This document shows, piece after piece, positions 29,731 to 60,873 of a stretch of DNA of 64,000 nucleotides. The stretch's first letter is position 1. Each line of letters opens with the position of its first letter. A model generated the notes under the pieces. That model saw only the letters and a list, made by a program, of their open reading frames with translations, was not told the DNA's origin and did not search any database. A program made the translations under genes and the position numbers. Source of the DNA: Alphaproteobacteria bacterium (GTDB taxonomy: Bacteria > Pseudomonadota > Alphaproteobacteria > SMXQ01); the NCBI GenBank assembly GCA_029863585.1, contig JAOTVC010000001.1:2704-66703 (forward strand), written 5' to 3'.

Positions 29731-29771
29731 GCTTGTTAACCCGATGTCCGCTAATAGCCATAAGCGGACAT
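29731..29771 (+). repeat. hairpin repeat family 1, copy R1 (GTTAAC flank on the left)
   Basis: GCTTGTTAACCCG followed by ATGTCCGC-N12-GCGGACAT. Confidence 0.85.
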
Positions 29772-29792
29772 AAGCGGCGGAAAGGTTACTGC

Positions 29793-29821
29793 AAAAAAAG
29801 AAACCCCCGCCGAAGCGGGGG
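29793..29821 (-). terminator. Rho-independent terminator (minus strand)
   Basis: CCCCCGC-CGAA-GCGGGGG hairpin. On the minus strand it is followed by TTTCTTTTTTT. It lies 230 nt downstream of the 30051 gene stop, so it may end a long 3' UTR or a separate small transcript. Confidence 0.6.
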
Positions 29822-29888
29822 CCAGGGAGAAAATTTCCATAAGCCCAGTAACACTAATCCTCAGTCGCGGGGCTGGCAAGGCGGTACC

Positions 29889-29921
29889 GTTAACCCAATG
29901 CCCGATTAAAGAAGCGGACAT
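29889..29921 (+). repeat. hairpin repeat family 1, degenerate copy R1b (GTTAAC on the left)
   Basis: GTTAACCCAATGCCCG...GAAGCGGACAT. The right arm is intact and the left arm is decayed. Confidence 0.6.
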
Positions 29922-30050
29922 GATGAGCTTCAAGGTTGGAATAGTTTTTTTTGCCTCTCTAACACTGCCTTTAGATCAAAGTCAGGAGCGCGGGTTGGTG
30001 AAAGCGCCGTTGATTTCTTGCAGTTTCAGAAGGACGATTATTCAGTTTGC

Positions 30051-30542
30051 TTAGTCTGAAGATTTTTTATCGTCAAGACTCCGCAAACCTCTCACGAAAG
30101 TAAATGTAAGTTCAGTATTTGATCTGGCACTCGTGGCAATCATCTTTTCGCCCTTAAGACGAAAGCTATGGTAGCAAATTTCAGCAAAAATTTTGCGATA
30201 AAACCAACAAAACCTTCCACTTTTGCTCACTGTCCAGGTCGTCTGTAGAGGTTGAGGATAGCCGTTGTTACGATCCCTTTCATAAACGAGTTTCTTGTCG
30301 TCGATGAAATAATAGGTACGCACTTCGCCTTTACCGTTTTTCTTCTCAAATCCACTTATCCTCTCCAAGGTATTACCAAGCATCAGCTTCCCAAATTCCG
30401 CACCGCTCATACCTCCAGCGGATGCTACGTGCGCATCGCTGAGGTACGTGCCAAAGAAAACACCAAACGCTGCGACTGTGATAAATGTGAAGCGACGCAT
30501 ATTCCTTTTATCCTTTCGAGTGGCCGAGCGCGTGTTCTGCAC
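30051..30542 (-). CDS. secreted hypothetical protein (DUF995-like)
   Basis: 163-aa ORF. The likely real start is MRRFTFITVAAFGVFF (ATG 30500), which gives a signal peptide. Lower G+C than the backbone. Family assignment is from memory only. Confidence 0.5.
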   Translation of the reverse strand: MQNTRSATRKDKRNMRRFTFITVAAFGVFFGTYLSDAHVASAGGMSGAEFGKLMLGNTLERISGFEKKNGKGEVRTYYFIDDKKLVYERDRNNGYPQPLQTTWTVSKSGRFCWFYRKIFAEICYHSFRLKGEKMIATSARSNTELTFTFVRGLRSLDDKKSSD

Positions 30543-30638
30543 GTAGGGCTATGTCACGCCCCGATCTCGGTTATCGATGAGTTGCTATGTCGGTTGCGGT
30601 AGTGATTGCCGCGTGTAAGACAACCGAGAACGGCGGCA

Positions 30639-30821
30639 CTATCTCCTACGATGCGTAGCCCCCTGGCGAGCAGATCCGCTGCGCCACATTGACGTGTGTT
30701 TGCATTTGGGACAGATGCGCTCGCCCGCCCATGCGCTGGTGAATGGACGCTGGCAGCTGAGGCAGTCACGCACTTTTGAAGCCATATCAACATCAGGTTG
30801 GGGTTTCACCGTGTAACTCAT
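30639..30821 (-). CDS. small zinc-ribbon protein
   Basis: 60-aa ORF with CLSCQRPF...ICPKCK (CxxC-N13-CxxC). The start could also be the internal ATG (MASKVRDC). Confidence 0.45.
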   Translation of the reverse strand: MSYTVKPQPDVDMASKVRDCLSCQRPFTSAWAGERICPKCKHTSMWRSGSARQGATHRRR

Positions 30822-30992
30822 GGAAAGATCCTTCTACTTGAAGAGAAATTGGCTGGGAACCAATCAAACAAAAGTGTTCGTTTCTTGGCATCGCCCTTGT
30901 CCCGAGGCCGGCGGTCGTGAACCTGGCCTGGCCTAGGCGTTCGTTCCCATCCTCACCGTCTCTTTATCCTTGGTGTGCCATTAATTGCCGCA

Positions 30993-31544
30993 TCATACCG
31001 CCCGCACCTCAATCACTTCCGGGATGTGATGCCGCAATAAATTCTCGATCCCGACCTTTAGAGTCGCGGTAGAGCTGGGACAACCCGAGCAGGAGCCTTG
31101 CATACGCAGGTAGACAACGCCGCGCTGGAAACCATGGAACAGGATGTCGCCCCCGTCCTGAGCCACCGCGGGACGGATGCGAGTCTCAAGAAGTTCTTTG
31201 ATCTTGGTCACGAGTTCGTCATCCTCGCCGGAGTCTGCATGCACCGAAATGGCGCTATCATCCGTGAACAGCGGCGCGCCGGCGGTGAAATGCTCCATGA
31301 TTGCGCCGAGGATCGGCGACTTGAGAAACGACCAGTCCTGGTCATCAGACTTCGTCACCGTGATGAAGTCGCCACCAAAAAACACGCCGGTTACGCCTTC
31401 GATCTCGTAAAGACGCATAGCCAAAGGTGAGGAAGCCGCGTCGTCCCGCGTCGCGAAATTAGCTGTGCCGCTTTCCATAACGGATTCGCCCGGGAGGAAC
31501 TTGAGTGTCGCCGGGTTCGGGGTTGCTTCGGTTTGAATGAACAT
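30993..31544 (-). CDS. NifU-like Fe-S cluster scaffold/carrier (Nfu N-domain plus NifU C-domain)
   Basis: MFIQTEATPNPATLKFLPG start and a C-terminal GSCSGCPSSTATLKVGIENLL (CxxC). Confidence 0.85.
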   Translation of the reverse strand: MFIQTEATPNPATLKFLPGESVMESGTANFATRDDAASSPLAMRLYEIEGVTGVFFGGDFITVTKSDDQDWSFLKSPILGAIMEHFTAGAPLFTDDSAISVHADSGEDDELVTKIKELLETRIRPAVAQDGGDILFHGFQRGVVYLRMQGSCSGCPSSTATLKVGIENLLRHHIPEVIEVRAV

Positions 31545-31553
31545 CTGAAGCCT

Positions 31554-32561
31554 CTACTTTGCAATGTTGCCGGAAGGTCGGACCGGAACGCCGGCGCCAT
31601 GGGGAGACATTCCCTTTAGGAACTTGAAGAGATCACTGTCCGTGGAAAGGACGAGCGTGGTGTTCTTGGCGATGATGGTTCCATAGGACTGCATGGTCCG
31701 TGTAAATTCGTAGAATTCCACTGATGCCGGGCTTTGGTTGTAAGCCTTTGCGTAGATTTCCGTGGCTTTGGCATCCGCCACGCCACGAATTTCCTCGACC
31801 TTTCGGTAGGCTTCAGACTGGATCTTATTGAGGTCACGTTCACGATTACCACGAATTCGAGCGGCCTCTCCGTTGCCTTCGGATAAGAATCGTTCGGCTA
31901 TCTGCCGCCGTTCGCTGATCATTCGATCGTAGATCTTGGGGCGTACGCTTTCATTGTAGTTGATGCGCTTGAACCGGATATCGAGCAATTGAATACCGAA
32001 CACGCGCACCTTCTCAGCGGCCGCGGAAAAGATTTCCTGCTCGACCAGCATGCGCCCCTTCTGGATTGGCACAAGTGCCCCCATGTTCTGTTCGCGCTCA
32101 GCGTCGGTTAAAAGAGCGTCGCGCAGCGGCTCACGATCCTTCGTGGTGCGGATGATCTCGATCAGCTCATGCTTGGCGACCGCGTTGCGGGTTTCGCTGC
32201 CGAGGATATCGTCCAGGCGGGACTGGGCGCTGCGTTCGTCGCGCAGCCGCAGAAAGTACTGGAGCGGATCCGTGATCCGCCAGCGGGCGAACAGGTCGAC
32301 CGAGATGTAGAGCTTGTCCTTGGTCGGCATATCTGATGGATTTCCATCCCACTCGAGGACGCGTCGGTCAATCGGATTGACATCCTGAATGAAGGGTACC
32401 TTGAACTTTAGGCCGGCGGTGGTCACGGGCGCGCCCACCGGCTTGCCGAACTGCGTGATGATCGCCTGCTCGACTTCGCTCACCGTATAGATGGAACTCG
32501 ACGCGACGAACGAACTGGCCCCCAAAACCACAAGGATTGCTATTTGCATGATCTTGTTCAT
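31554..32561 (-). CDS. hflC: protease modulator HflC
   Basis: 335-aa SPFH/band-7 protein with an N-terminal TM helix. IITQFGKPVG...GLKFKVPFIQDV is collinear with HflC. Overlaps the hflK stop by 4 nt. Confidence 0.85.
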   Translation of the reverse strand: MNKIMQIAILVVLGASSFVASSSIYTVSEVEQAIITQFGKPVGAPVTTAGLKFKVPFIQDVNPIDRRVLEWDGNPSDMPTKDKLYISVDLFARWRITDPLQYFLRLRDERSAQSRLDDILGSETRNAVAKHELIEIIRTTKDREPLRDALLTDAEREQNMGALVPIQKGRMLVEQEIFSAAAEKVRVFGIQLLDIRFKRINYNESVRPKIYDRMISERRQIAERFLSEGNGEAARIRGNRERDLNKIQSEAYRKVEEIRGVADAKATEIYAKAYNQSPASVEFYEFTRTMQSYGTIIAKNTTLVLSTDSDLFKFLKGMSPHGAGVPVRPSGNIAK

Positions 32562-33622
32562 GGCTGGTCTCCCTTCTGGGCGCCCAGATCGAGAAGAGGC
32601 AGGATGCTGCGAGTCTGTTCATCGACGATGATCTTGGAGCGTATGCTCGGCAGGACGTCTTGAAGGGTTTCGATATAAATGCGGCGGCGGGTGACCTCCG
32701 GGGCCTTGCTGTATTCCGCCAGGAGCGCACTGAATCGGGCGGCATCGCCTTCCGCCTCATTTATCCTCTTGAGCCGGTAACCGTCCGCCTCCCGGATACG
32801 CTGATCCTTCTCGCCCTCGGCCAAGGGGATTACCTTGTTGTAGTCTCGGCGGGCTTCGTTGATCAGTTTCTCTTTCTCTTGCTGAGCCTGGTTGACCTCG
32901 TTGAAGGATTCCTGCACCGGTTGGGGCGGGTTAATGTTCTTTAATTGGACCTGATCGATGCTGATCCCCATTGCATATTTGGTTGAGAGCGCCTGCATCT
33001 TGGTCAACGCTTCCGTTTCGATTTCCTGCCGCCCGATCGTAATCACCTCATCCACGGTGCGATCGCCGACGACTTCCCGCATGACGGATTCGGAGACATA
33101 GCGAAGGGTTTCAGCTGGTTCCCGAACCTCGAAGAGGAACTTGACAGGATCCGCGATGCGATATTGGACCACCCACTCCACCAGGGCCGCATTCAGGTCA
33201 CCGGTCACCATCTGTGTTTCCCGGGTTGTATCGCGAGGACGAGGGCTTTGGTAAGGATCTCTGGCGCCAGGGGTCGTAAAACCGAATTCCTGTTTCAGCT
33301 GACGTTTAACGGGAACGATGGTCGCCGCGTCAATTCCAAGTGGAAGTTTGAAATGCAGGCCTGGTGGAACCTGCTTGACGTATTTGCCAAAGCGCTGCAC
33401 GACAGCGACGGAATCACTCGGCACGGTGTAATAGGCCGACCATGCACCCCAAGCGGCGAGAGCTAGGACGGTAATGATGATGATTCCGCGCGGCCCACCA
33501 CCTGGAATAATTTGTTTGAGTCGCGCTTGTCCCTGGCGCAACATATTTTCGAGGTCAGAACCGAGAGGGCCGCCTGTCCCCCACGGGCCACCTTGTCCGC
33601 CATTGCTGTTCTGTGATGTCAT
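32558..33622 (-). CDS. hflK: protease modulator HflK
   Basis: 354-aa ORF with a Gly-rich N-terminus, a TM helix and VVQRFGKYVKQVPPGLHFKLPLGID, followed by the SPFH domain and a coiled-coil tail. Confidence 0.85.
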   Translation of the reverse strand: MTSQNSNGGQGGPWGTGGPLGSDLENMLRQGQARLKQIIPGGGPRGIIIITVLALAAWGAWSAYYTVPSDSVAVVQRFGKYVKQVPPGLHFKLPLGIDAATIVPVKRQLKQEFGFTTPGARDPYQSPRPRDTTRETQMVTGDLNAALVEWVVQYRIADPVKFLFEVREPAETLRYVSESVMREVVGDRTVDEVITIGRQEIETEALTKMQALSTKYAMGISIDQVQLKNINPPQPVQESFNEVNQAQQEKEKLINEARRDYNKVIPLAEGEKDQRIREADGYRLKRINEAEGDAARFSALLAEYSKAPEVTRRRIYIETLQDVLPSIRSKIIVDEQTRSILPLLDLGAQKGDQP

Positions 33623-34122
33623 TGGGCTTTCCGATTCCTTTGTCGCGTAAAATCACATTTGGTGTGCCAATTGATTCGCGGCCAGAAGAACGCTCTCGAT
33701 GCGAATTCCTGGCGCTTTTTGGGCCAATCGTTCATTTTGGTCGAACTATCATCCCCTCGGCATCGGCTCGTGCTAAGGCCCGAATGTCGGCTTTTTTTGC
33801 GAGCGCCTCATCCTTTTGGTTCAAGGCACTCTTGATTTCCTCCTGGTCGTTGGTGTGCCTTCGGCGCTTGATCGCGTATCAAAGTGGCATCCAGCGCAAT
33901 CGGGTCGATCGTCATTGTGCGTATACGCCCCGGGAATTGTCGCTCCGCATGCAAATGAATCAGGGTCAGAATCCGGCGGTACGCAGGGAATGAAACGCCC
34001 GAAATTTCATGCTTTTTTTCTTTATCTAAAAGATGTGGGGCCAAATACCGGCGATAAGGCGCAATCCGGGGGCAGTGGCGCACTGCCGCCCGTTTCGCCC
34101 GTCGAGTCGATATTCGGCTTGT

Positions 34123-34245
34123 CTAATTGAGAATAAGGAATAAGACGAACGCGAGGAGAGCTCCGCCCATTATGACGTAACTAAGAATACTGGGCCGCGA
34201 ACCCTTGGTATCGGCATTTACGCCCCCAGGTGGCTGATCAGTCAT
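34123..34245 (-). CDS. candidate 40-aa tail-anchored membrane peptide
   Basis: Hand translation gives MTDQPPGGVNADTKGSRPSILSYVIMGGALLAFVLFLILN, then a stop. GGGAAGG lies about 8 nt upstream of the ATG. It is shorter than the ORF-track cutoff and has no homology evidence. Confidence 0.3.
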   Translation of the reverse strand: MTDQPPGGVNADTKGSRPSILSYVIMGGALLAFVLFLILN

Positions 34246-34453
34246 TTCTGGAACCTTCCCGTAAGGCCGGGTCTTCCGTGTCAGGAGCCTCATGGCCTAC
34301 GTCAATGCTACATGGGAACTCCGGTCAACTATAACAATAGGCAGCGGCGAATATATTCGCCAACGGTTGCTGACGCCCCCGCCTTTCGGTGGTGTGGTGA
34401 ACTTGGTTCGGTGCTCAAGGGGGGCAAGAAGCGTTGGTGCGATTCTGGCCGCT

Positions 34454-34489
34454 ATGTCCTCTTCGGGTCAGAAGAAGGCATCAATTGAG
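34454..34489. repeat. hairpin repeat family 1, degenerate copy R2
   Basis: ATGTCCTCTTCGGGTCAGAAGAAGGCAT. Loop and spacing are conserved but the arms are mutated, and the flank is too decayed to orient. Confidence 0.5.
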
Positions 34490-34586
34490 CGACACGGTTC
34501 ACACGAATTCCCAGCCCCGCCTTGCCAGCCCTAGCGGTGCGGAGTAGGGTTTCAATGTTTGCTCGTATGTAGATGTTGAGCCTTTG

Positions 34587-34617
34587 GCCCCCATTATTCG
34601 CGGGGGCTTCTTTTGTT
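34587..34617 (+). terminator. orphan terminator-like hairpin T1
   Basis: GCCCCC-N9-GGGGGC followed by TTCTTTTGTT. No upstream plus-strand ORF. Confidence 0.45.
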
Positions 34618-34728
34618 CGCCAAAGATCGCGGGGCCCTTGTATGAAACTGCGCGCATGGCCATATCGCTTTAAGGCGGGCTTGTTCACGCCAAACATTTG
34701 CGAGCCCATCTATCAGTAGCCGCTTACT

Positions 34729-34760
34729 GGGCCGCCCTTCGGGGCGGCCCTTTTAATTTT
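34729..34760 (+). terminator. orphan Rho-independent terminator T2
   Basis: Perfect 9-bp stem GGGCCGCCC-TTCG-GGGCGGCCC followed by TTTTAATTTT. No credible plus-strand CDS ends upstream. Confidence 0.65.
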
Positions 34761-34846
34761 AGATACCATCCCCAGCTTAGCCAGCCTGTTAGGCGCTCGT
34801 TAATACTCCACGCGCAGACTATTCATAATCCAAGCTTTGGCCGACT

Positions 34847-34870
34847 AGCCCCCTCTGCCAGGGGGCTTTA
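34847..34870 (+). terminator. orphan terminator-like hairpin T3
   Basis: AGCCCCCT-CTGCC-AGGGGGCT followed by TTATCT. The U-tract is weak. Confidence 0.35.
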
Positions 34871-34893
34871 TCTAGAGTGTTTGCGTGATCCCA

Positions 34894-34930
34894 ATGTCTG
34901 CTTTGGGTCAAAAGCGGTCATCGGATTAAT
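34894..34930 (-). repeat. hairpin repeat family 1, copy R3 (flank on the right, degenerate)
   Basis: ATGTCTGCTTTGGGTCAAAAGCGGTCAT followed by CGGATTAAT, which matches CAGGTTAAC at 6 of 9 positions. Confidence 0.75.
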
Positions 34931-35209
34931 ATCCGCCAATAGCCAACAGCGGACATGAGTAACAAAACGGCGCATCATTAGCCCGCCAGTCATACCGACA
35001 CCAATCGGCAATCGAATCGACATCGTCCGCATTGGTTTTTTCGCGGTTCGCCCGCGATATGAAAATGTGTGCATCTCCGTTAGCCCTCTCGACCGAAAGG
35101 CGACATTCTTGGTCGACAGACGCGGTGGTCTTCCTTATTTGGGAATAGCGGGCTCCTTGCTTGTCCGCTGGGACTTGTCAGTTGATGCTAAGGCGCCCCA
35201 CAGGGAGAT

Positions 35210-36349
35210 GTGGTCAAGGTCATGATTCAGAATCTCACGCGTGCGCTAGCCTTTGCCGGAACCATACTTTTGTTGGCAGCGAGCTCGTCGGCGGTCGCAC
35301 AGCAGGCGGGTGCGGCTGTCTCCATCGATTCTCCGGTGGCCGAGGATCAGTATCTCGCGGGCGGAACCGTTACGGTACGTACGCAGGTGGCCGGCGATGT
35401 GACCGCCGCCGGTGGAAAAATTCTTGTGGACGGTCAGGTCGGAGGCGACGTGAACGCCGCCGGTGGCGCTATCGACCTCTTCGGCCGGGTTCTCGACGAT
35501 GCAAGGCTGGCTGGCGGCATGCTCACTATCGGCGCCAAGCTCGGTGGTGACCTTGTCGCAGCCGGTGGGTCGGTTTTCGTGCTCCGAGACTCGGAGGTCT
35601 CGGGGCGGGCATGGCTTGGTGGTGGGCGCGTTGAGGTCCTTGGTCGGATCGGGGGAGAGCTCAAAGCCACAGGCGGCAAAGTGGTCATCAACGGGATCGT
35701 GAATGGCGATGTTCACGTCATCGGGCGACAGGTTCGCATTGGCTCGGCCGCACGTATCGCAGGTGATCTCACCTATACCAGCAGGCGCGAGGCCATTATC
35801 GACGCTGGCGCCAGGATCGACGGTGCGGTCAAGCGCTTGCCGCCGACGAAAATGGCGGTGCCGTCAGCTGCCGTCGCGATCGGCATTATGGGCGGATTGT
35901 GGTTGGTCGGATTGATCGTAATGGGCATGGCCCTTGTCCTCGTTTTTCCAACTGCAACGGCCCGCCTCACCGAGACGATCCAAGAGAATTCCGGGCGATG
36001 CGCCTTGGTGGGCTTTGCGCTTTTGGCGGCGGTGCCCTTGGCCTCACTGATCAGCTTTATGATGTTGATCGGCGTGCCGCTCGGGCTCGCCCTGCTTGCG
36101 CTATACCTGACTGCGCTTCTCGCCGCCTATTTGACGGGTGCGTTGTGGCTCGCCGAGCGAGTCCTCTCGTGGCTTGGTGGTGACCGGTCCCATCGGACGG
36201 GGCAGCGCGCGGGCTTCCTGGCAATCACCTTGATCGTGTTGATGCTGATTGGCTGGATTCCGATTGTTGGCTGGTTGGTTTTCCTCGCGATCTTGGTTCT
36301 TGGTTTGGGCGGTCTCAGCCTGCGGCTACACCGATTGGCAGGTGGCTGA
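35210..36349 (+). CDS. bactofilin-like beta-helix repeat protein with signal peptide and C-terminal polytopic membrane domain
   Basis: 379-aa ORF with signal peptide ILLLAASSSAVAQQ. About 170 aa are short G-rich repeats (GDVTAAGGKILVDGQVGGDVNAAGGAIDLFGRV...GGDLVAAGGSVFV...GGELKATGGKVVINGIVNGDVHVIG), followed by 4-5 hydrophobic helices. Confidence 0.65.
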   Translation: MVKVMIQNLTRALAFAGTILLLAASSSAVAQQAGAAVSIDSPVAEDQYLAGGTVTVRTQVAGDVTAAGGKILVDGQVGGDVNAAGGAIDLFGRVLDDARLAGGMLTIGAKLGGDLVAAGGSVFVLRDSEVSGRAWLGGGRVEVLGRIGGELKATGGKVVINGIVNGDVHVIGRQVRIGSAARIAGDLTYTSRREAIIDAGARIDGAVKRLPPTKMAVPSAAVAIGIMGGLWLVGLIVMGMALVLVFPTATARLTETIQENSGRCALVGFALLAAVPLASLISFMMLIGVPLGLALLALYLTALLAAYLTGALWLAERVLSWLGGDRSHRTGQRAGFLAITLIVLMLIGWIPIVGWLVFLAILVLGLGGLSLRLHRLAGG

Positions 36350-36510
36350 TCGAGTAAATGATGCTGCCACTCATTCTCGCTATACAACTAGCGACCATGT
36401 TTGGGATCGCATCCGTCTGTCTTCATCGAACGACCAAAGTCGCGCGGGTGGTTTGGGTAATGAATCCAGAGGCGGATAAACGGGTGTTCTCCTGAATGTC
36501 GCTGATCCTG

Positions 36511-36547
36511 ACGTCCGCCTTGGGTCAGAAGCGGACATTAGGTTAAC
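36511..36547 (-). repeat. hairpin repeat family 1, copy R4 (GGTTAAC on the right)
   Basis: ACGTCCGCCTTGGGTCAGAAGCGGACAT followed by TAGGTTAAC. Confidence 0.85.
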
Positions 36548-36682
36548 CCGCCCCAGTCACAACCAGGCACCGGAGCAGTCAACATACTCGTGATCGGGGG
36601 CGCCCGGGGGCGGCTTGCCAGGGCGTGAGATTGACCGTATACCAAGCCCCGCATCGATCAACGGGAGCCCGAGGAATCCGCC

Positions 36683-37378: not shown

Positions 37379-37382
37379 ACCC

Positions 37383-39654: not shown

Positions 39655-39658
39655 GCCT

Positions 39659-41223: not shown

Positions 41224-41264
41224 GCTTGTTAACCCGATGTCTGCTTTTGACCCTAAGCGGACAT
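41224..41264 (+). repeat. hairpin repeat family 1, copy R5 (GTTAAC on the left)
   Basis: GCTTGTTAACCCG followed by ATGTCTGCTTTTGACCCTAAGCGGACAT. Confidence 0.85.
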
Positions 41265-41466
41265 CGCTAGATTGAGTGTTTGCCGTAATCTGAGTGTAGC
41301 GATCTAGTCGAATGGTTCGAAAGGTAAAAGAACCGAAAAATGCAAAGGCAAAAACACCCATTATACTTCAAGATCGCTAGACCAGAATGTTTGCTTCGTT
41401 GCGCTTTTGCTACCGCCGAACCAGAATGACAGCGAAAATTGTACGGCGGGTCGGGGGGACGGTACT

Positions 41467-42915
41467 GTGTCGAACGACGCAAGAATATTTATCGGTGCCG
41501 GCACCAGCGCACAGTATCTGGAGCTGGCGCGCGCCAATCGTCATGGGCTGATCACCGGCGCCACGGGCACAGGCAAAACCGTAACCTTGCAAATCCTCGC
41601 AGAAGGGTTTTCCAGGGCAGGCGTGCCGGTGTTCCTAGCCGACGTCAAAGGGGATCTGTCGGGCCTCTGCCAGGCGGGCGAGGCAAAGGACTTTCTCATC
41701 AAGCGCGCCGAGGCCATCGGCCTCAGCGATTACGAGTTCGCGCCCGCGCCGACCATCTTCTGGGATGTTTTCGGCGAGAGTGGCCATCCGGTCCGCACAA
41801 CGATCTCGGAGATGGGGTCGTTGCTTTTGGCGCGCTTGCTCGAGTTGAACGAGACACAGGAAGGCGTGCTCTATATCGCGTTCCGGGTTGCCGACGATGA
41901 GGGGATGCTGCTGCTCGACCTCGACGATCTGCGGTCGATGCTGACGTTCCTGAGCGAGAACGCCGCAGAGATCGAGCGCGAATACGGCCGCGTGTCGGCC
42001 GCCTCGGTGGGGGCAATACAGCGCCGCCTGTTGACGCTGCAGGCGCAGGGCGGCGACCGATTTTTCGGCGAACCCGCGCTGCAGCTTGCCGACTTCATGA
42101 AGCAAACCTTCGACGGACGCGGCTTCGTCAACATTCTAGCCGCCGACCGGCTCATCGAATCGCCCCGGGTCTACGCCACCTTGCTGTTGTGGCTGCTGTC
42201 GGAGCTGTTTGAAGACCTGCCCGAGGTCGGCGATCCCGACCGGCCAAAGCTCGTATTTTTCTTCGACGAGGCGCATTTCCTGTTCGACGGCGCACCAAAA
42301 GCGCTGATCGAGCGGATTACGCAGGTTGTGCGCCTGATCCGTTCGAAAGGCGTCGGTGTCTACTTCGTCACCCAGAACCCGCTCGACATTCCCGACGACG
42401 TCCTTGGCCAGCTCGGCAACCGGGTCCAGCACGCATTGCGCGCCTACACGCCGCGCGACGCCAAAGCGGTGCGTGCGGCGGCGCAGACCTTTCGTCAGAA
42501 TCCGGCGATCGACACCGAGGCCGCGATCACCGAACTTGGCGTCGGCGAAGCGCTCGTTTCGACGCTCGACGTCAAGGGCGTGCCGAACATGGTCGATCGT
42601 GTGCTCGTGCGGCCGCCCGGCTCGCGCCTCGGCCCCGCCGACCCCGCAGAGCGCCAGTACGTGTTTGGCCGCAGCCCGGTCGCGGGCCGGTACGACAAGG
42701 AAGTCGACCGGGAGTCGGCGCACGAAATCCTCACGCGGCGCGCCGACGAGGCCGCGCGGCAGGCGGAGGCCGAACGCGAGCGCAAACCAAGCCCTCGGCG
42801 CTCTAACCGGCAAAGTATCGGCGAGGCGCTCGCCAAGTCGGTCGTTCGCTCGATCGGCAGCCGTATCGGGCGGGAGATCGTGCGGGGCATCCTGGGCTCG
42901 CTTTCGCGTCGCTAG
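41467..42915 (+). CDS. HerA-like P-loop NTPase, DUF853 (YjgR) family
   Basis: Walker A in [41 protein letters not shown] and Walker B in [13 protein letters not shown], with a basic C-terminal tail. I prefer GTG 41467, preceded by GGGGGGACGG. The ORF-track start at 41407 is also possible. Confidence 0.8.
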
Positions 42916-43082
42916 CGCGGTCGCAGCCCTCAACGGAAGAATTGTGGACCCATTCATGCAGGGTAATGTGCCAAAAGTAGAAGTTGGTCGCGTTGACCGA
43001 ATTCCCGCCAATCCCATACGGTGGGTGGCAATCGTGGCGAAGCAAGATCACCGGTAGTGCATCCGGACAGGAAGGAGCAGTG

Positions 43083-43418
43083 ATGGCAGGCAAGTTTGAA
43101 ATCTACAAAGACAAGGCGGGCGAGTTCCGGTTTCGATTGAAGGCCGGCAACGGGCAGATAATCCTCGCCAGCGAAGGCTACAAACGAAAGGCGAGTGCGA
43201 CCAACGGCATCGAATCCGTTAAAAAGAACGCACCGTCGGATGTGAACTACGAGCGTAAGGAAACCAAATCGGGCGGCGTCATGTTCAACCTGTTGGCCGC
43301 CAACAAGCAGGTCATCGGCACCAGCGAGGTCTATAACAGCGCCGCGGCGCGCGACAATGGGGTGGAATCAGTGAAGTCCAACGCGCCGAATGCATCTGTC
43401 GACGACCTGAGCAGCTGA
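43083..43418 (+). CDS. YegP/DUF1508 (UPF0339) protein, two tandem repeats
   Basis: MAGKFEIYKDKAGEFRFRLKAGNGQIILASEGY...NGIESVKKNAP is repeated as FNLLAANKQVIGTSEVY...NGVESVKSNAP. The ATG is preceded by AGGAAGGAG. Confidence 0.8.
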   Translation: MAGKFEIYKDKAGEFRFRLKAGNGQIILASEGYKRKASATNGIESVKKNAPSDVNYERKETKSGGVMFNLLAANKQVIGTSEVYNSAAARDNGVESVKSNAPNASVDDLSS

Positions 43419-43506
43419 TATTGTTTTTGGTGGCAGGTGGCGTTGCAATGCCGCCGCGATAACACGCGCCATTTAATCAAGTCAGGCTGTCTTGGCAGTC
43501 AGTAAG

Positions 43507-43542
43507 ATGGCAGCCTCGGCTAAAAGCAGACATCAGGTTAAC
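43507..43542 (-). repeat. hairpin repeat family 1, copy R6 (GGTTAAC on the right, left arm decayed)
   Basis: ATGGCAGCCTCGGCTAAAAGCAGACAT followed by CAGGTTAAC. Confidence 0.7.
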
Positions 43543-52265: not shown

Positions 52266-52281
52266 GGAAGGACCGGACCAC

Positions 52282-54360: not shown

Positions 54361-54406
54361 GGCCGGGGCGCCAAGAGAGCCGGGGCCCCAGGAAAGGAAG
54401 AGGAAC

Positions 54407-55132: not shown

Positions 55133-55154
55133 TCGAGGCGAAGGAGAAGAACCC

Positions 55155-55880
55155 ATGCCCATACTTGGACACCGCGCGCGGATCGGCTACTGCTCGCCGC
55201 CCTTCGTCACGGAGACCTTCTGCACCGAGTTCTACATGATGGCGCCCGAGGGCGTGACCCTGATGATCACCACCCTGGAGATCCGCACCCGCACCAAGCA
55301 AGAGGTCGCGGCCAGTCACGAACGCAGCCTTCTCGCCGCCAAATACATGGCCGACGCCGGGGCCGACGTGGTGGTGCTCGGCGGAAACCCCATCAATCAG
55401 AGTTTGGGGATGGAGAATATCGGCTCGGTCACCGACAACCTGGCGAAAGAGATCGGCACCAAGGTCATCAGCTCCACCCAGGCCCAGATCGACGCGTTGA
55501 ATTGTCTCGGCGCGAAAAAGGTCGCCCAGGTGTTTTGTTACGAGGATTCGGAAAAAGAACGCCACGCCAATTCCATGCGCAACATGGGGTTCGAGCCGGG
55601 CGCCATCCGCGCGTGCGGGGCGTCGTTTCAGGACATCGGCGCCGTCGACGGCGAGCTGGCTTTGACCCTATCGCGCGAGGTGATGGAGGAAACCCCGGAC
55701 GCCGACACCATCCACCTGGGCTCCGCCCATTGGGCGACCGCCCATGCGCTGGACCGGATCGAGCGGGAACTCGGCGTCTCCACCATGACCTCGCAACAGG
55801 CGATCTTCTGGAAGGCGCTCCGCACCGCCGGCGTCGACGATAAGATCAAGGGCTTCGGGCGGCTGTTGCGCGAATTCTAG
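55155..55880 (+). CDS. AMDase/maleate isomerase-like, array copy 3
   Basis: 241-aa ORF. Motifs: RARIGYCSPP, GADVVVLGGNPINQSLG, IHLGSAHW, LGVSTMTSQQAIFW and GFGRLLREF. Confidence 0.75.
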   Translation: MPILGHRARIGYCSPPFVTETFCTEFYMMAPEGVTLMITTLEIRTRTKQEVAASHERSLLAAKYMADAGADVVVLGGNPINQSLGMENIGSVTDNLAKEIGTKVISSTQAQIDALNCLGAKKVAQVFCYEDSEKERHANSMRNMGFEPGAIRACGASFQDIGAVDGELALTLSREVMEETPDADTIHLGSAHWATAHALDRIERELGVSTMTSQQAIFWKALRTAGVDDKIKGFGRLLREF

Positions 55881-55906
55881 GGTCCAGGGAGAGGGAGACC
55901 GCCGCC

Positions 55907-56626
55907 ATGTACGGATACCGCGCGCGAATCGGCTATTGCTCGCCGCCTTACGTGACGGAAACCTTCTGCACCGAGTTCTATATGATGGTGCCCAAGGGCG
56001 TGACGCTCCTGATCAAGACGCTGGAGGTCCGCACCCGCGCCAAGGACGAGATCGCGGCATCCCACGTGGCGGCGCTGGAGGCGGCGGACTACATGGCGAA
56101 GTGCGGCGCCGATGTCGTGGTGCTGGGCGGCAACCCGGTCAACCAGTCCCAGGGGGTGGAGAACCTGGCCGATATCTGCGCCGACCTCGCCCGAAAGATC
56201 GGCACCAAGGTCATCACCTCGACCCAGGCCCAGACCGAGGCGCTTCGGGCGCTCGGCGCCAGGCGGGTGGCCCAGGTGCATTGCTACGAGGCGCAAGACA
56301 ACGCGCGCCACGAACAATCGATCCGCAACATGGGGGTCGAGCCCGCGGGTGTCCTCGGCCTCGGCTACACCGATTACCAGGTCGGCCAGATTCCGGGCGA
56401 CGTGGCGCTCGCCGCCTCGCGCCGGGTCAAGGAAGAGAACCCTGAGGCCGATTGCATCCACCTGGCCTCGGCCCATTGGGCCATCGCCCATGCCATCGAC
56501 CGGATCGAGCAGGAGCTGGACGTGTCGGTCATGACCTCCCAGCAGGCGATCGTCTGGAAGGCGCTGCGCACCGCCGGCATCGAGGACAGGATCGACGGCT
56601 TCGGGCGGTTGCTCAGGGAGTTCTGA
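55907..56626 (+). CDS. AMDase/maleate isomerase-like, array copy 4
   Basis: 239-aa ORF. Motifs: RARIGYCSPP, GADVVVLGGNPVNQSQG, IHLASAHW, LDVSVMTSQQAIVW and GFGRLLREF. Confidence 0.75.
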   Translation: MYGYRARIGYCSPPYVTETFCTEFYMMVPKGVTLLIKTLEVRTRAKDEIAASHVAALEAADYMAKCGADVVVLGGNPVNQSQGVENLADICADLARKIGTKVITSTQAQTEALRALGARRVAQVHCYEAQDNARHEQSIRNMGVEPAGVLGLGYTDYQVGQIPGDVALAASRRVKEENPEADCIHLASAHWAIAHAIDRIEQELDVSVMTSQQAIVWKALRTAGIEDRIDGFGRLLREF

Positions 56627-56872
56627 GCGCCGCGCCGTTCTAGCGTCCGGACTCGATACACATCATCTCCCAAGCTGACTTGCCGGAAATCTTCGATTTC
56701 CTTCACAGATCGCGCTGTCCGGGATCCTGGTCCGCCGTTTCGTCTCGGCAGGTATGTATCCTGGGGGGACAACTCTCACGCTCGGAAAACCTCACGGTTT
56801 TCCGCCTCACCCAGCGCCTGCGATGACGGAACACGCCGATGTTGCTAGTCCCGGCCTATGTTTGGAACATGA

Positions 56873-56913
56873 GCTTGTTAACCCGATGTCTCCTTTTAGC
56901 CAAAAGCAGACAT
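56873..56913 (+). repeat. hairpin repeat family 1, copy R7 (GTTAAC on the left)
   Basis: GCTTGTTAACCCG followed by ATGTCTCCTTTTAGCCAAAAGCAGACAT. Confidence 0.85.
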
Positions 56914-57124
56914 ATGACGTCCACAAGAATGGAATGTGCGCGCTTCACATTGCGGCCTATACAAATCCGCGATCGAGAACATTGGAGCCCGCGTCTGCTG
57001 CGCCCCAAGTAATTAACCTTAAAGAAAGCTACATTTTTATGTAGTGATTAACGAAATCCTCATTGATGAATGCAGCCGATTTTTGGAATCTCCACCTACC
57101 TCGATTGGTATTGGAGATTTTCAA

Positions 57125-57319
57125 ATGTTGATTACTGGGCACGTTTGGCTGAAAGCATTTATCGAAAAAGACGACGGCGTCACCGCCATTGAATATGGCC
57201 TCATTGCCGCACTTATCGCGGTCGTCATCATTGCCGCTCTAAGTCTCGTAGGCACAGAGCTCAACACGACCTTTTCAGAAATCCAAAGTGCATTAGCTAA
57301 CGCCAATAACGGCAGCTGA
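57125..57319 (+). CDS. flp: Flp-family type IVb pilin
   Basis: 64 aa from ATG 57125, with GGAG 8 nt upstream. KDDGVTAIEYGLIAALIAVVIIAAL is the Flp prepilin motif (G/xTAIEYGLI). Confidence 0.85.
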   Translation: MLITGHVWLKAFIEKDDGVTAIEYGLIAALIAVVIIAALSLVGTELNTTFSEIQSALANANNGS

Positions 57320-57425
57320 GCACCAGGGTGCGTTGCATCGCAGGTTTAATTTTCTAAGAGAAGAGAATACTTGCGCTCCAGGTAGGAGCGTCTTTTTCCC
57401 GGTTGATTACGGTGAGTGGTTAGTC

Positions 57426-59015
57426 ATGTTGCGTTCTGTTGCGAATCGTTTTTGTCCGCTTTCTCGTCCTTTTCAACAGTTTGCTCGGCGATTCTGGAGG
57501 GCTCGAAAGGGCACAGTTGCGATCTACGTGTCCTTCGTCTCCGTGATCATGATCGGCTTTGGCGCCTTGGTGGTTGATGCTGGACGTGCCTATACGCTGC
57601 AAACCGAACTGCAGAATGCAGCCGATGCGGCTGCGCTCGCCGGGGCAGCCGAGCTTGATCTAACAGCGACATCCATCACGCGGGCGCGCGCCGCGGCTAA
57701 GACCGCATTGATTAAGAATCTTCAGACTTTTGCTTCGGGCGGCACGGATGTGGAGATCACGGATGCCAACATCCGGTTTCTGTCATCGTTGCCACCTGAC
57801 GATGATTCACCAATCACTGCGGCTATCGTCACGACCGATTCGCTAAAGGCGAAATACATCGAGGTCACACCCACAGTCCGTGAGGTGGACTATCTCCTGG
57901 GGCCGGTTCTGGCCGCCTTCTTTGGCAATCAAGGCGAACAGCTCAGCAAGGGCAAGGCCTCGGCCACGGCGGTGGCGGGATTGGAGTGTGTCGTCTGCAA
58001 TTTCCCACCATTGATGATCTGCAATCCTGCAGAGTCCAACGGTTTGCCCGGTGCCGCATTCAACCCGGTTCCCGGCCAACTGGTAAAGCTCAAACAGGGC
58101 GGAGGTACGGGCAGCTGGACACCTGGCAACTTTGGCCTGCTCGATCCACCCCAGGGCAATCAGGGGACTGCTAACCTTCAAGAGGCTCTGGCGAGTAGCA
58201 GTCCGGAGGGGTGCTATTCGACCCTTGTCGATCTGCGCACGGGGTCGGCCGCCAATCCGATCTCAACGGCCATCAACACCCGCTTTGACATGTATGAGAC
58301 CCCGGGCTTCGGCGGAGGAGCAAGAAACAATTCGGCATATCTGCCGGCGCCGAACGTGACCAAGGGCAAGTACAAATCAGGCAACGACTATGTCGACTAC
58401 GCGGGTAGCCCACCGGCGGGTCAGGCCATGCCCAAGCACCCCTGCTTTGCCGCGGGCAACTGCGGAACCTTAGGCCCGTCCTTCCACGACCGTTTCGCTC
58501 CACCGGCGCCCGCCAATCTGTCTGACCAGCAGTCATTCTGGTCGGATTATTGGACGACCAATCATCCCACCGACGACTTCGCCTCGCTCTATTCCAATGG
58601 CGACATCGATCCCAACAATGACGGCGTTGTCACTCGGCAAGAGATGTATGAATGGGAAAACAGCGCCGGCAAGATCCCGACCGGGGACACCGATGGCGAC
58701 GGCGATGTTGATGCCTCCGATGCGGCCACGGCGAGTAGTGCCACGGGAGAGAATGGCCGGCCCATGAATTACGGTGGCGCGGTCGCACCCGATCCCAAGC
58801 GCCGCATCATCTATATCGCCGTGATCAACTGCGTCGATAACGGCCCGCTCAACGGCAATTCAGACAACGTTCCGGTCTTGGCCTACGCCAAGATGTTCAT
58901 TACCCATCCCGCCGAGGGCGGCAGCGATCAAACGATCTACGCGGAAATTATCGGCGTGTTGGAACCAAATCAGGACCAGGGGGTGCTGCATGACATTGTT
59001 CAGCTCTATCGCTAG
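57426..59015 (+). CDS. TadG-like pilus-assembly protein (pseudopilin) with C-terminal EF-hand-like loops
   Basis: Start set at ATG 57426. RKGTVAIYVSFVSVIMIGFGALVVDAGRAYTLQTELQNAADAAALAGA is the TadG N-terminal signature. The large C-terminal region has no other recognised domain. Confidence 0.75.
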   Translation: MLRSVANRFCPLSRPFQQFARRFWRARKGTVAIYVSFVSVIMIGFGALVVDAGRAYTLQTELQNAADAAALAGAAELDLTATSITRARAAAKTALIKNLQTFASGGTDVEITDANIRFLSSLPPDDDSPITAAIVTTDSLKAKYIEVTPTVREVDYLLGPVLAAFFGNQGEQLSKGKASATAVAGLECVVCNFPPLMICNPAESNGLPGAAFNPVPGQLVKLKQGGGTGSWTPGNFGLLDPPQGNQGTANLQEALASSSPEGCYSTLVDLRTGSAANPISTAINTRFDMYETPGFGGGARNNSAYLPAPNVTKGKYKSGNDYVDYAGSPPAGQAMPKHPCFAAGNCGTLGPSFHDRFAPPAPANLSDQQSFWSDYWTTNHPTDDFASLYSNGDIDPNNDGVVTRQEMYEWENSAGKIPTGDTDGDGDVDASDAATASSATGENGRPMNYGGAVAPDPKRRIIYIAVINCVDNGPLNGNSDNVPVLAYAKMFITHPAEGGSDQTIYAEIIGVLEPNQDQGVLHDIVQLYR

Positions 59016-59535
59016 GACCCTCCGAGTCAGCCCGGATCCGAAACAATCGATCCGGATGATGCTGGCCGATGACTCGCGCGGCGCTGCGGCCGTCGAGTTC
59101 GGAATTCTCCTTCCGTTCATGGTCGTATTGCTGGCAGGGATTGCCGATGTCGGGCGCAGCATCTGGCACCATCACACCCTGGAAAAGGGCGTTCGTGATG
59201 CGGCCCGCTATCTGTCCCGGGTCGATGCTCCCCCGACAGTCGCACAACGAGCAGCAGCCAAGAACCTCATGCTGCGCGGCGACTTCGATGGCTCGAAGCC
59301 GCTACCCTATGGCTATTGGTCGGGCAACATGACTACCAATCTCGATTCCCAGACCAATCTCGTTACGCCCTATGACAACAGTGCTGGCACCTTTCGCGGC
59401 CCCGATACGATCAACATCATCACGGTGACCGCATCGGTAACCGCACCGTCGGGGGAATTCCCGCTCCTGTCTTTGTTTGGAGGAGGCACGGTCAAGTATT
59501 CGGCCCGCCACCAGATCAGGAATGTCGGAGAGTAG
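58990..59535 (+). CDS. TadE-like pseudopilin
   Basis: RGAAAVEFGILLPFMVVLLAGIADVGRSI is the TadE motif. The start may be the internal ATG at 59056, which removes the 26-nt overlap with tadG. Confidence 0.75.
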   Translation: MTLFSSIARTLRVSPDPKQSIRMMLADDSRGAAAVEFGILLPFMVVLLAGIADVGRSIWHHHTLEKGVRDAARYLSRVDAPPTVAQRAAAKNLMLRGDFDGSKPLPYGYWSGNMTTNLDSQTNLVTPYDNSAGTFRGPDTINIITVTASVTAPSGEFPLLSLFGGGTVKYSARHQIRNVGE

Positions 59536-59538
59536 AGA

Positions 59539-60162
59539 ATGGCCAAGAAACTCCTGCGATCGTATTGGAGAAGGTCAGAGGGCGCAACGGCTCTGGAATT
59601 TGCCCTGGTCTGCGTCCCCCTGCTGATCCTCACCCTCGGAATCATCGAGTTTGCCTTTGCCCTGTTTCAATGGAACACAGCGGAAAAGGCGACACAGTTA
59701 GGGGTCAGGCGTGCGGTGGTCTCCGCGCCGGTTGCAACCGGGCTCAATACATTCAACGGAAAGACCAATAGCAATGAATATGGCGATGAGCCGATGCCGG
59801 ATTTTGCCAATTCTCCGGTGATCTGTAACGGGGCCACGTCTACATGCTCCAACGGCTTCACCTATTCGTCCGCAGCGCACGGCCGCATTGTCGCCAGGAT
59901 GCGGTCAATTTTCCCGCGCATCGCGGCAAACAACGTCGTGGTTGAGTATCAGCCGATGGGCCTTGGCTTCGTCGGGCGCTGCGGTGCAGTGCCGTCCGTG
60001 ACGGTTCGTCTGCAGAACATGTCCTACGACTTCATGGTCATCGACTCGCTGTTGAACCTGGTGGGCGGGACGGGGGCCGCGAGCATGGCCATGCCGAGCT
60101 TCACGGCCACCATGGTCGGCGAGGACCTCAACACTGCGGGGGCAATCTCACCCTGCGCGTGA
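59539..60162 (+). CDS. TadE/TadF-like pseudopilin
   Basis: Carries SEGATALEFALVCVPLLILTLGIIEFAFALFQWNTAEKA. Starts 4 nt after the previous stop. Confidence 0.75.
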   Translation: MAKKLLRSYWRRSEGATALEFALVCVPLLILTLGIIEFAFALFQWNTAEKATQLGVRRAVVSAPVATGLNTFNGKTNSNEYGDEPMPDFANSPVICNGATSTCSNGFTYSSAAHGRIVARMRSIFPRIAANNVVVEYQPMGLGFVGRCGAVPSVTVRLQNMSYDFMVIDSLLNLVGGTGAASMAMPSFTATMVGEDLNTAGAISPCA

Positions 60163-60301
60163 GCTACTGAAACGAAATGTAAACGTTCCAACCGTATCCT
60201 GATCATATCTTTTCACTGCAAACAGGCCCCTTCTGATTGCAGGAAAGAGCGAAGCATTTTCTGTTCTTCAAATTTACGAAGTGCTCTGGTCCTAGCTGCT
60301 G

Positions 60302-60338
60302 ATGACCGCTTTGGGTCATAAGCGGTCATCAGGTTAAC
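60302..60338 (-). repeat. hairpin repeat family 1, copy R8 (GGTTAAC on the right)
   Basis: ATGACCGCTTTGGGTCATAAGCGGTCAT followed by CAGGTTAAC. Confidence 0.85.
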
Positions 60339-60355
60339 GGGCTGCCACAGGCGAC

Positions 60356-60798
60356 TTAACGGGGCCTACCTCGATCAAAATGTTCGGTCTCGTTTGATAG
60401 CTGCACAAAGGGCAGCTTGCTCGATACGAAGATATCCATCTCCGGGCGCACAAAATTGGCGTTGTCAATCGTGCCGACTTTGATGTGAACCATCTTGCCG
60501 GCCCGTGAACTCCTGGCGAAAAGAGGCGTGCCGCAAGTTTCGCAAAAGCGCTTTGTGAGGGTTAGGCCAGCTTCATTCTCATGCTCGAATGTTTTCGGGG
60601 TGCCTTGCAGGATTTTCAGATCGTCTTCGTTGACAAAGACATAGGTTCCAAAGGCTGTCCTGTCGTTTTACGACAATCGTCACAGTGGCAATTCAAGGTT
60701 CTTATTAGTTCCCCATTCACCTCGTACCTGATGGCACCACATAAACACCGTCCCGTAAATTTCGGCATTTCTATTCCCCCTTTAATATGAACCGGCAT
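60356..60798 (-). pseudogene. GFA/CENP-V family (glutathione-dependent formaldehyde-activating-like) gene with a frameshift
   Basis: The N-terminal frame gives MPKFTGRCLCGAIRYEVNGELIRTLNCHCDDCRKTTG and then stops at 60616. A second frame, open from about 60667, continues AFGTYVFVNEDDLKILQGTPKTFEHENEAGLTLTKRFCETCGTPLFARSSRAGKMVHIKVGTIDN... to TAA 60356-60358. The shift lies within about 60653-60667. Confidence 0.7.
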
Positions 60799-60836
60799 TA
60801 GACACCTAAAGGGGGGGGAGTAGCGACAGAGTGCTT

Positions 60837-60873
60837 ATGTCCGCTTTGGGTCAGAAGCGGACATTCGGCTGAG
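60837..60873. repeat. hairpin repeat family 1, copy R9 (consensus hairpin, flank decayed)
   Basis: ATGTCCGCTTTGGGTCAGAAGCGGACAT, with perfect 10-bp arms. The flank TCGGCTGAG only weakly resembles CAGGTTAAC. Confidence 0.8.

Follow-up and report, generated by a model that had tools for sequence, protein, structure and literature searches.

Repetitive extragenic palindromic (REP) elements rank with the most frequent features of bacterial genomes that lack an explanation, and to our knowledge no enzyme but the REP-associated tyrosine transposase (RAYT) has been connected with them so far. Two inverted arms around a centre of 6–8 bp are the canonical core-site layout of tyrosine recombinases, for example in loxP and FRT (13-8-13). 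Here we analyse a 64,000-nucleotide stretch of an alphaproteobacterial contig (JAOTVC010000001.1, positions 2,704 to 66,703 of the forward strand, assembly GCA_029863585.1; hereafter the window), which carries 11 copies of a hairpin with, in its regular form, 10-bp arms around an 8-nt centre and a one-sided tail ending in GTTAAC. With a probability of about 0.55, and on the strength of sequence comparison, we read these copies as scattered core sites, REP-like in kind, at which a small tyrosine recombinase of about 205 amino acids (aa) would mediate the exchange of modules.

Systems built of REPs, bacterial interspersed mosaic elements (BIMEs) or REP doublets forming hairpins (REPINs) together with RAYT resemble the family in several respects. 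Short extragenic palindromes number from tens to hundreds, either single or paired as inverted doublets, the enzyme gene lies between repeats and is outnumbered by non-autonomous copies, and the repeats are hot spots of insertion and rearrangement. In contrast, the present family lacks a GTAG or CGTC tag, the site-bearing DNA searched yielded no Y1/HUH gene, and the flanked gene encodes a tyrosine recombinase. Its arms are conserved across classes and phyla instead of being lineage-specific, and its junctions indicate exchange in the palindrome centre, not cleavage beside the palindrome.

Integrons (IntI, attI, attC) likewise combine a tyrosine recombinase with foldable palindromic sites; inserted circular cassettes are bounded by hybrid sites and are common to replicons of different genera. 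Here, however, a platform (attI, Pc) and a one-way array are missing; the sites lie scattered in intergenic DNA and point either way. Their arms are conserved in sequence and the tail is one-sided, whereas attC conserves structure, the R''/L''-L'/R' boxes and a GTTRRRY core. At about 205 aa, the enzyme is also smaller than IntI (about 320 aa) and lacks the IntI-specific insertion. The Xer-dependent pdif modules of Acinetobacter plasmids lie, as here, between short dispersed recombinase sites in various plasmid contexts and rely on a host- or plasmid-encoded enzyme. By direct reading, though, the palindrome does not resemble dif (11-bp XerC and XerD arms, 6-bp spacer, TTATGTTAAAT), and the linked enzyme is not XerC/D. 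Invertases of the FimB/FimE type share the size of about 200 aa, the restriction to the catalytic domain and short inverted repeats near their own gene, but they flip one local promoter segment, whereas here the sites are numerous and found genome-wide and the observed event is an insertion between direct sites. In Neisseria, dRS3 palindromes (ATTCCC-N8-GGGAAT) flank variable intergenic modules and serve DNA integration via a site-specific recombinase. Together with the Neisseria intergenic mosaic elements (NIMEs) and minimal mobile elements, they are comparable to our family as dispersed short palindromes with an 8-nt centre; they differ in sequence and enzyme class (IS110-type, for filamentous prophages) and are restricted to one genus. 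The dRS3 repeats were equated with CGTC-1 REPs in a survey of GTAG/CGTC REPs that does not describe the present palindrome family (PMC3733652). The system proposed here would be a combination of the genomic habit of REPs and REPINs, the chemistry and cassette behaviour of integrons and pdif modules and an enzyme of FimB/FimE size. In the searchable literature, figures and subscription journals lying outside the search, no description of a recombinase-linked REP-like system was found, and queries with arm-plus-loop strings returned primers only.

The palindrome ATGTCCGCTT-N8-AAGCGGACAT occurs in seven copies with at most three mismatches in the window, compared to 0.00 expected from 100 dinucleotide-preserving shuffles. 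Two profiles, one built from 128 copies of other genomes and one of the family's full unit, yielded 11 sites, seven strong and four decayed, all at 29.7–60.9 kb. No further site was found in the 64 kb by profile search (next best match E=4.8), which leaves positions 1–29.7 kb and the high-G+C blocks of the window free of copies; the 10 kb to the right of the window are also high in G+C and contain no sites. The sites are:

Site 1, 29731..29771, minus strand: left-facing; GCTT and GTTAACCCG tail, hairpin 29744-29771 (ATGTCCGCTA ATAGCCAT AAGCGGACAT), loop class 2 reverse; 65 nt past the stop of the gene at 28734-29666.
Site 2, 29889..29921, minus strand: left-facing, decayed; GTTAACCCA and ATGCCCGATT AAAG AAGCGGACAT, loop shortened; E 3.5e-4.
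Site 3, 34453..34481, plus strand: right-facing, weak; ATGTCCTCTT CGGGTCAG AAGAAGGCAT, no recognisable tail; E 2.6e-3.
Sites 4 and 5, 34894..34956, unstranded: doublet; hairpin 34894-34921 (class 1, loop TGGGTCAA) and hairpin 34929-34956 (class 2 reverse, loop ATAGCCAAC) with a shared degenerate tail (CGGATTAAT) between them.
Site 6, 36511..36547, plus strand: right-facing; ACGTCCGCCT TGGGTCAG AAGCGGACAT and TAGGTTAAC; E 1e-11.
Site 7, 41224..41264, minus strand: left-facing; GCTT GTTAACCCG and ATGTCTGCTT TTGACCCT AAGCGGACAT, class 1 reverse; E 4e-13; the profile alignment extends about 15 nt into the doublet spacer.
Site 8, 43507..43542, plus strand: right-facing, left arm decayed; ATGGCAGCCT CGGCTAA AAGCAGACAT and CAGGTTAAC, class 2; E 3e-4.
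Site 9, 56873..56913, minus strand: left-facing; GCTT GTTAACCCG and ATGTCTCCTT TTAGCCAA AAGCAGACAT, class 2 reverse.
Site 10, 60302..60338, plus strand: right-facing; ATGACCGCTT TGGGTCAT AAGCGGTCAT and CAGGTTAAC, the stem with a compensated T-A to A-T change; E 4e-12.
Site 11, 60837..60864, plus strand: right-facing by its loop; perfect ATGTCCGCTT TGGGTCAG AAGCGGACAT, tail replaced by TCGGCTGAGAAC.

Seven of the copies have the layout 10-8-10 (arm, centre, arm), which gives a core hairpin of 28 bp. The tail YRGGTTAAC is present on one side of the copies at 29731, 29889, 36511, 41224, 43507, 56873 and 60302; the 34894/34929 pair has a degenerate form of it (CGGATTAAT), and the copies at 34453 and 60837 have none. 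The sites at 34894-34956 form a compact tail-to-tail doublet, right-facing then left-facing, and the window copies are otherwise monomers consisting of hairpin, tail and the start of a spacer. The initial annotation of this DNA, which was made from the letters alone, had listed ten copies of a hairpin with 10-bp arms, an 8-nt loop and a GTTAAC flank. The repeat, its layout and the orientations given for the copies were confirmed, and the count rises to 11. The longer string that it had noticed in left-facing copies is also present (GCTTGTTAACCCGATGTC) and reads through the tail into the conserved beginning of the doublet spacer (GTTAAC-AAGCC).

Some further observations concern the immediate surroundings of the sites. 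Between the sites at 29731 and 29889, a sub-threshold Rfam match to the small RNA (sRNA) suhB/mmgR (alpha-r8) was obtained at 29787-29850 on the minus strand (27 bits versus a gathering threshold of 41, E 0.025); this candidate sRNA has a CUCCC motif and an intrinsic terminator. The region 33623-35209, about 1.6 kb with a G+C content of 0.54 and three sites, has no family-supported gene and includes a weak SorY-like Rfam match at 34674-34757. In the assembly of the same sample held by ENA, two contigs overlap by about 141 nt at about 60538-60678, between the sites at 60302 and 60837; the window's own assembly spans this contig break.

The sites lie where the composition of the window changes. 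The G+C content is 0.49–0.61 at 30–37, 41–44 and 57–61 kb, compared to 0.62–0.70 elsewhere. On a crude gene map based on the G+C content of third codon positions (GC3), all sites fall in seven intergenic spacers with a G+C content of 0.51–0.58. Across these spacers GC3 differs by a median of 0.15, compared to 0.03 in the 28 other spacers (Mann–Whitney p=3e-4), and the effect holds when only spacers of at least 300 bp are considered (p=0.002). For this window, the copies are indeed confined to the lower-G+C segments and located at their borders, as had been proposed. The window thus looks like a mosaic assembled or rearranged at its 11 sites, which form seams between gene blocks.

Beyond the window, a search with exact arms in one genome per species yielded at least 119 loci, and a search of metagenome contigs with hairpin plus tail more than 119. 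Among the matches listed, the family occurs mostly in Pseudolabrys and other Xanthobacteraceae; Agrobacterium vitis, Sphingomonas, Lysobacter, Luteimonas, Pseudoxanthomonas and Pantoea are also among them, as are beta-, gamma- and deltaproteobacterial metagenome-assembled genomes, Nitrospinaceae and Udaeobacter, with identical arms. In 768 kb of genome loci 524 copies were counted, with frequent arrays of 13–16-nt spacers and alternating loop classes. The arms hardly vary across 939 copies, and the centres can be sorted into a few discrete classes (TGGGTCAW, TTGGCTAW and others). A similarity between the centre GTGCCAA and the R64 shufflon crossover sequence sfx was rejected as a coincidence, because the arms differ.

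In the Xanthobacteraceae loci (L001-L119), arrays often adjoin orphan genes of ABC-type substrate-binding proteins (32 loci), and SAM/cyclase/TPR regulator genes lie beside arrays in 15 loci. The 'protein' LFDHLVGAGEQ…, which is common in metagenomes, represents the 3' ends of the binding-protein genes read in the antisense frame.

The family is REP-like by distribution. Only 13 of 663 oriented copies lie inside open reading frames (ORFs; 11/431 and 2/232), so that more than 97% are extragenic. Copies are found in every intergenic configuration, divergent genes included, have no preferred orientation relative to the neighbouring genes (65:58 and 15:14) and occur as singlets, inverted doublets and arrays. 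This agrees with the REP-type reading that the initial annotation had offered as one of two, although its restriction to foreign, AT-rich DNA is not general. The same distribution is what would be expected if the palindrome were an ordinary REP or BIME element, selfish or domesticated, copied by a RAYT-like HUH transposase or another enzyme and accumulating in long AT-rich spacers, with the synteny breaks described below arising from occasional homologous recombination between copies and the recombinase being merely one more flanked gene. Decay by one-sided mutations fits this explanation, and REPs are known as targets and recombination hot spots. Correspondingly, a 155-bp miniature inverted-repeat transposable element (MITE) with 14-bp terminal inverted repeats (GGYTGTGTRAAAAC) has inserted into a hairpin loop of the metagenome locus L215 (about 1464–1620), duplicating TGGGTC; the orthologous hairpin in L200 is intact and without the MITE. 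On the other hand, REPs are reportedly lineage-specific according to the work of Bertels and Nunvar, and arms identical across phyla would be unusual for such elements. REPs are defined by GTAG and CGTC tags next to the stem (PMC3733652), which are lacking here; the first bases of the stem are ATGTC. E. coli RayT had no match in the window, in 1.3 Mb of site-bearing loci or on the Pantoea, Klebsiella and rhizobial plasmids that carry sites, although a RAYT is single-copy per genome and would be missed by such sampling. Two further points against an ordinary REP, the fixed distances between recombinase gene and site even in plasmids in which sites are rare and the repeated location of breakpoints in the 8-nt centre, are presented below. 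We consider this explanation rather doubtful, while still deserving serious attention.

No transposase, integrase or RAYT gene is present in the window, as had been noted before, and tblastn detected no recombinase gene there either. A candidate enzyme was found in related loci. Clustering of 4,836 ORFs from 238 loci did not reveal a recurrent transposase near sites; the recurrent groups were ABC substrate-binding proteins and the antisense frames of their genes, together with cyclase/TPR proteins and acyl-CoA synthetases. Among the genes with sites on both sides were 127 ordinary, unrelated genes, which is in line with the REP explanation, and one gene for a 211-aa tyrosine recombinase (locus L210). 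The protein matches PF00589 with 72 bits, and members of its family have about 205 aa (200–211) and consist of the catalytic domain only, with the motifs LRACDL, HSLRR, LLGH and RYL as read by eye. Against solved structures, Xer proteins were the best match (E 5e-6, catalytic domain only). None of the NCBIfam models reaches its cutoff: the integron-integrase model TIGR02249 gave 28.6 bits (cutoff 265), the XerC/XerD models 40–55 bits (cutoffs about 330) and the models of tyrosine-type DNA invertases 35 bits. The family was found on 443 plasmids (Sinorhizobium 41, Pantoea 35, Escherichia 26, others) and comprises at least 8000 clusters of 206–211 aa, with 65–72% identity between Alpha-, Beta- and Gammaproteobacteria. 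Palindrome and recombinase family thus both span proteobacterial classes, which we count in favour of a connection between them.

Fourteen loci were used to analyse the linkage of recombinase gene and sites. In L210, an alphaproteobacterial contig with the GTTAAC subfamily of the window, the gene lies between inverted sites of the same class, with the tails toward the gene and 88–94% identity to the window sites. A second alphaproteobacterial contig of this subfamily (L270) has a tail and a decayed hairpin downstream and only a tail-like motif upstream. Two Pantoea loci, an E. coli IncY plasmid and Klebsiella carry the palindrome on both sides of the recombinase gene, 36–48 nt before the ATG in three of these four enterobacterial loci and about 20 nt after the stop. 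In Pseudoxanthomonas, Agrobacterium, Roseomonas, Methylocystis and Leisingera, a site or half-site lies downstream of the gene. Near-consensus sites (at most four mismatches) occur in 5 of 28 recombinase flanks, compared to 1.7% of background windows, and GTCCGC/GCGGAC hexamers reach 4.1 per kb in the flanks versus 0.98 per kb elsewhere.

In Betaproteobacteria, one identical 207-aa recombinase was found in at least five contexts (L267-L269, L272-L275, metagenome), with neighbours that vary by contig (GreA-like, gyrB, tolB-pal and transposase genes) and with a lineage-specific palindrome (AAGGTCGCCGCTT-TGAGATA-AGTAGCGACCTT) that always starts 8 nt past the stop. Judged by these contexts, the gene behaves as a mobile single-gene unit. 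In Pantoea, the 12-nt spacer of doublets (CAGGGCTGCCGT) has CAGGGCTGC in common with the sequence directly after the recombinase stop, and doublets therefore look like internally deleted recombinase units. Taken together, the enzyme acting on the palindrome is likely a tyrosine recombinase and not an HUH/Y1 transposase, and the linked family is its probable identity.

Junctions in closed plasmids indicate what may happen at the sites. The megaplasmid of Pantoea agglomerans C410P1 has one site between the genes for Bor and a GNAT protein. At the same position, P. agglomerans L15 carries two direct sites around a 1.8-kb insert of two genes (a hypothetical and a HEPN-related protein). Its left junction consists of the target's left arm and the insert's right arm, and the right junction is the reverse. 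The same cassette is present site-to-site in an IncF plasmid of Klebsiella michiganensis with 81% identity. In this three-way comparison of relatives, the crossover is thus located within the central region and leaves hybrid sites. Within the same 19 kb, synteny is interrupted a second time, beginning at the loop of another site, and the third indel of this stretch is a plain microhomology deletion.

IncFII plasmids carry a site of the family about 1.1 kb downstream of repA (L254 4854-4881; L276-L279), in a flank that matches more than 5000 records. In a spread IncFII sample, most alignments end at query positions 865–901, which is the site. In the four IncFII plasmids examined closely, the left arm is identical and the loop nearly so, and each of them continues with a right arm and cargo of its own. 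Of 40 internal homology breakpoints in metagenome contigs, 19 are no more than 15 nt away from a site, a figure of low weight because assemblers break and join at repeats; L146 and L173, for example, have the flank and left arm in common and differ from the loop onward. An apparent cassette in two contexts (L200/L215) was discarded, as it is one locus with different flanking arrays and the MITE in the loop.

Hence the initial annotation's first reading, cassettes handled in trans by a hairpin-recognising enzyme, survives in essence through relatives of the window, in which a plasmid cassette is inserted at a site and a recombinase gene is flanked by sites; its picture of terminal inverted repeats and of an HUH/Y1 enzyme is not supported. 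Taken literally, this picture makes the three low-G+C segments transposon-like cassettes, with the hairpins as terminal inverted repeats and the GTTAAC side pointing outward as the element's end. The segments are as follows:

Lower-GC block 1, 29772..36510, unstranded: 163-aa ORF, Nfu-type scaffold, HflC and HflK (GC3 0.46–0.71), about 1.6 kb without supported gene, 379-aa ORF without family.
Lower-GC block 2, 41265..43506, unstranded: HerA-like ATPase (DUF853; GC3 0.80) and DUF1508 protein (GC3 0.72).
Lower-GC block 3, 56914..60301, unstranded: TadG-like protein and two TadE-like proteins (GC3 0.66–0.75).

The bracket geometry is real: a left-facing and a right-facing site surround each block with tails outward, at GC3 seams. 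Its interpretation as terminal repeats finds no support in the family's canonical unit, a doublet of about 98 bp in the aligned metagenome loci. This unit comprises hairpin A (loop TGGGTCAW), the tail YRGGTTAAC, a spacer of about 24 nt (RGCCCAGGGGCC...), the reversed tail GTTAACCYR and hairpin B (loop TTAGCCAA). The GTTAAC side consequently faces the partner hairpin and is the interior of the doublet, just as it faces the recombinase gene in L210. Successive distant copies read left–right in 37 and right–left in 3 cases among metagenome loci (34 versus 17 among genome loci), because doublets read right then left; the long-range left–right order follows from this doublet structure. In the window itself, 7 of 10 neighbouring pairs alternate (p ~0.17 by our own arithmetic), and the six outer orientations on which the bracket claim was based give p ~0.03, calculated post hoc in the same way. 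The bracketing sites belong to different loop classes, neither a target duplication beside the window copies nor a transposase gene in the window was seen, and the blocks hold housekeeping-type genes. Around 21 singlets in other genomes, the G+C content of the tail side (0.560) and the hairpin side (0.553) does not differ (p=0.59). The window data do not single out the three blocks as the mobile parts, and the literal cassette model is highly improbable; the repeat is more likely a recombination docking site than a transposon end. A search for presence or absence of the blocks returned, as the nearest HerA homologues outside the species, proteins of 73–74% identity in unrelated contexts without synteny; where the same strain recurs in other samples, its sites are unchanged.

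Regarding the remaining genes of the window, the high-G+C blocks contain TctABC transporters, molybdopterin oxidoreductases, hydrolases and paralogues of Amdase; no tRNAs were found in the window. TctA/TctB clusters (tripartite tricarboxylate transporter) at 18.0–20.1 and 25.2–27.2 kb are duplicates about 7.18 kb apart with 70–74% identity, and TctC-family receptors occur at several places. Two paralogues of a molybdopterin-binding oxidoreductase, at 43769-46447 (minus strand) and 48826-51312 (plus strand), are inverted, with 95-nt arms of 75% complementarity, and enclose XdhC and MobA-like genes. Four tandem Amdase paralogues (arylmalonate decarboxylase, PF17645) are found about 750 bp apart at 53623-56626, with a fifth copy of the family 7.2 kb downstream (63145-63870). 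In block 1, gene callers differ between 35210-36349 (plus strand, 379 aa) and 35246-35716 (minus strand, 156 aa), neither of which has a Pfam family.

Matched-class inverted pairs with tails inward do exist in the window, and they bound high-G+C blocks: 36511/41224 (class 1) and 43507/56873 (class 2). Their geometry equals that of the recombinase unit in L210. Such pairs would also be expected if same-class inverted sites flanked segments flipped by a tyrosine invertase, in a FimB/E- or Hin-type layout, and the segments concerned would be 36511-41264 and 43507-56913; the weak invertase matches of the recombinase (35 bits, below the cutoff) point in the same direction. However, a class match in both pairs has a chance of about 25% by our own arithmetic, no inverted isoform was seen in other assemblies of the species, and the segments are ordinary operons without an obvious switchable promoter. 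As the demonstrated event is moreover an insertion between direct sites, paired inversion is an improbable explanation of the family.

A stem of 10 bp is stable, and 7 of the 11 window copies lie downstream of a gene end, which raises the question of whether the element acts at the RNA level, as a stem-loop in 3' untranslated regions that stabilises or terminates transcripts. In the 939 copies, 92 stem changes are compensated compared to 36 expected (about 2.6-fold), and on the strand that has the C-rich loop G.T mismatches outnumber A.C mismatches (70:25 and 133:90). This asymmetry hints at single-strand folding or else at subfamily inheritance. The excess of compensated changes implies some selection for pairing, although common sequence is the dominant signal. 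Sequence and not structure is conserved, no U-tract follows the stem, and the lack of orientation bias and the copies between divergent genes described above are not in line with a transcript element. The window repeat has no Rfam match at the gathering threshold and none at E<=5 (29–37 kb), and none was obtained for four array-rich loci at E<=1. Among the explanations weighed here, a function in RNA is the one we find hardest to credit.

Several results weigh against the recombinase reading. The window lacks the gene, and the recombinase loci of Paracoccus and Pseudoalteromonas have no recognisable site. The four enterobacterial loci are one conserved module and not independent cases, and in site-rich genomes, where almost any gene has sites on both sides (127 ordinary genes), a flanked position by itself says little. 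The same hybrid junctions would also result from homologous recombination between 28-bp repeats. The brackets around the window's low-G+C blocks are inverted and of different loop classes, whereas the demonstrated cassette lies between direct sites of the same class, and copies in other genomes show no G+C asymmetry around them. Loops are mostly 8 nt across 743 copies but not strictly fixed in length, with some 9-nt classes, and stem variation is mostly uncompensated (1,363 one-sided versus 92 compensated changes).

If the dispersed palindromes are nevertheless core sites, the arms ATGTCCGCTT and AAGCGGACAT would be bound by the recombinase of about 205 aa acting in trans, and strands would be exchanged in the 8-nt centre, which would also set polarity and partner compatibility. 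The site may act as duplex DNA or as a folded single strand. Recombination between the site of a circular module and that of a replicon would insert the module between two hybrid sites, while recombination between two resident sites would lead to deletion, inversion or reshuffling of modules. Singlets and the doublets of about 98 bp would then be the non-autonomous form, comparable to an internally deleted unit of site, tail, recombinase gene, tail and site. The blocks of the window may have moved in this way.

On a broader scale, one can tentatively imagine a decentralised, integron-like exchange, in which recombinases of about 205 aa would use scattered REP-like palindromes on chromosomes and plasmids, including the IncFII site, as docking sites. 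This is a possibility that we put forward with less confidence than the role of the palindromes as core sites. In that case any site could accept, lose or reshuffle modules, and the 98-bp doublets would be non-autonomous remnants. Should the link to the recombinase prove true, the family would represent a second kind of REP-like system. It would explain the mosaic gene order in many soil Alphaproteobacteria and would place a recombination hot spot beside the IncFII replicon, where variable cargo begins, in thousands of clinical plasmids.

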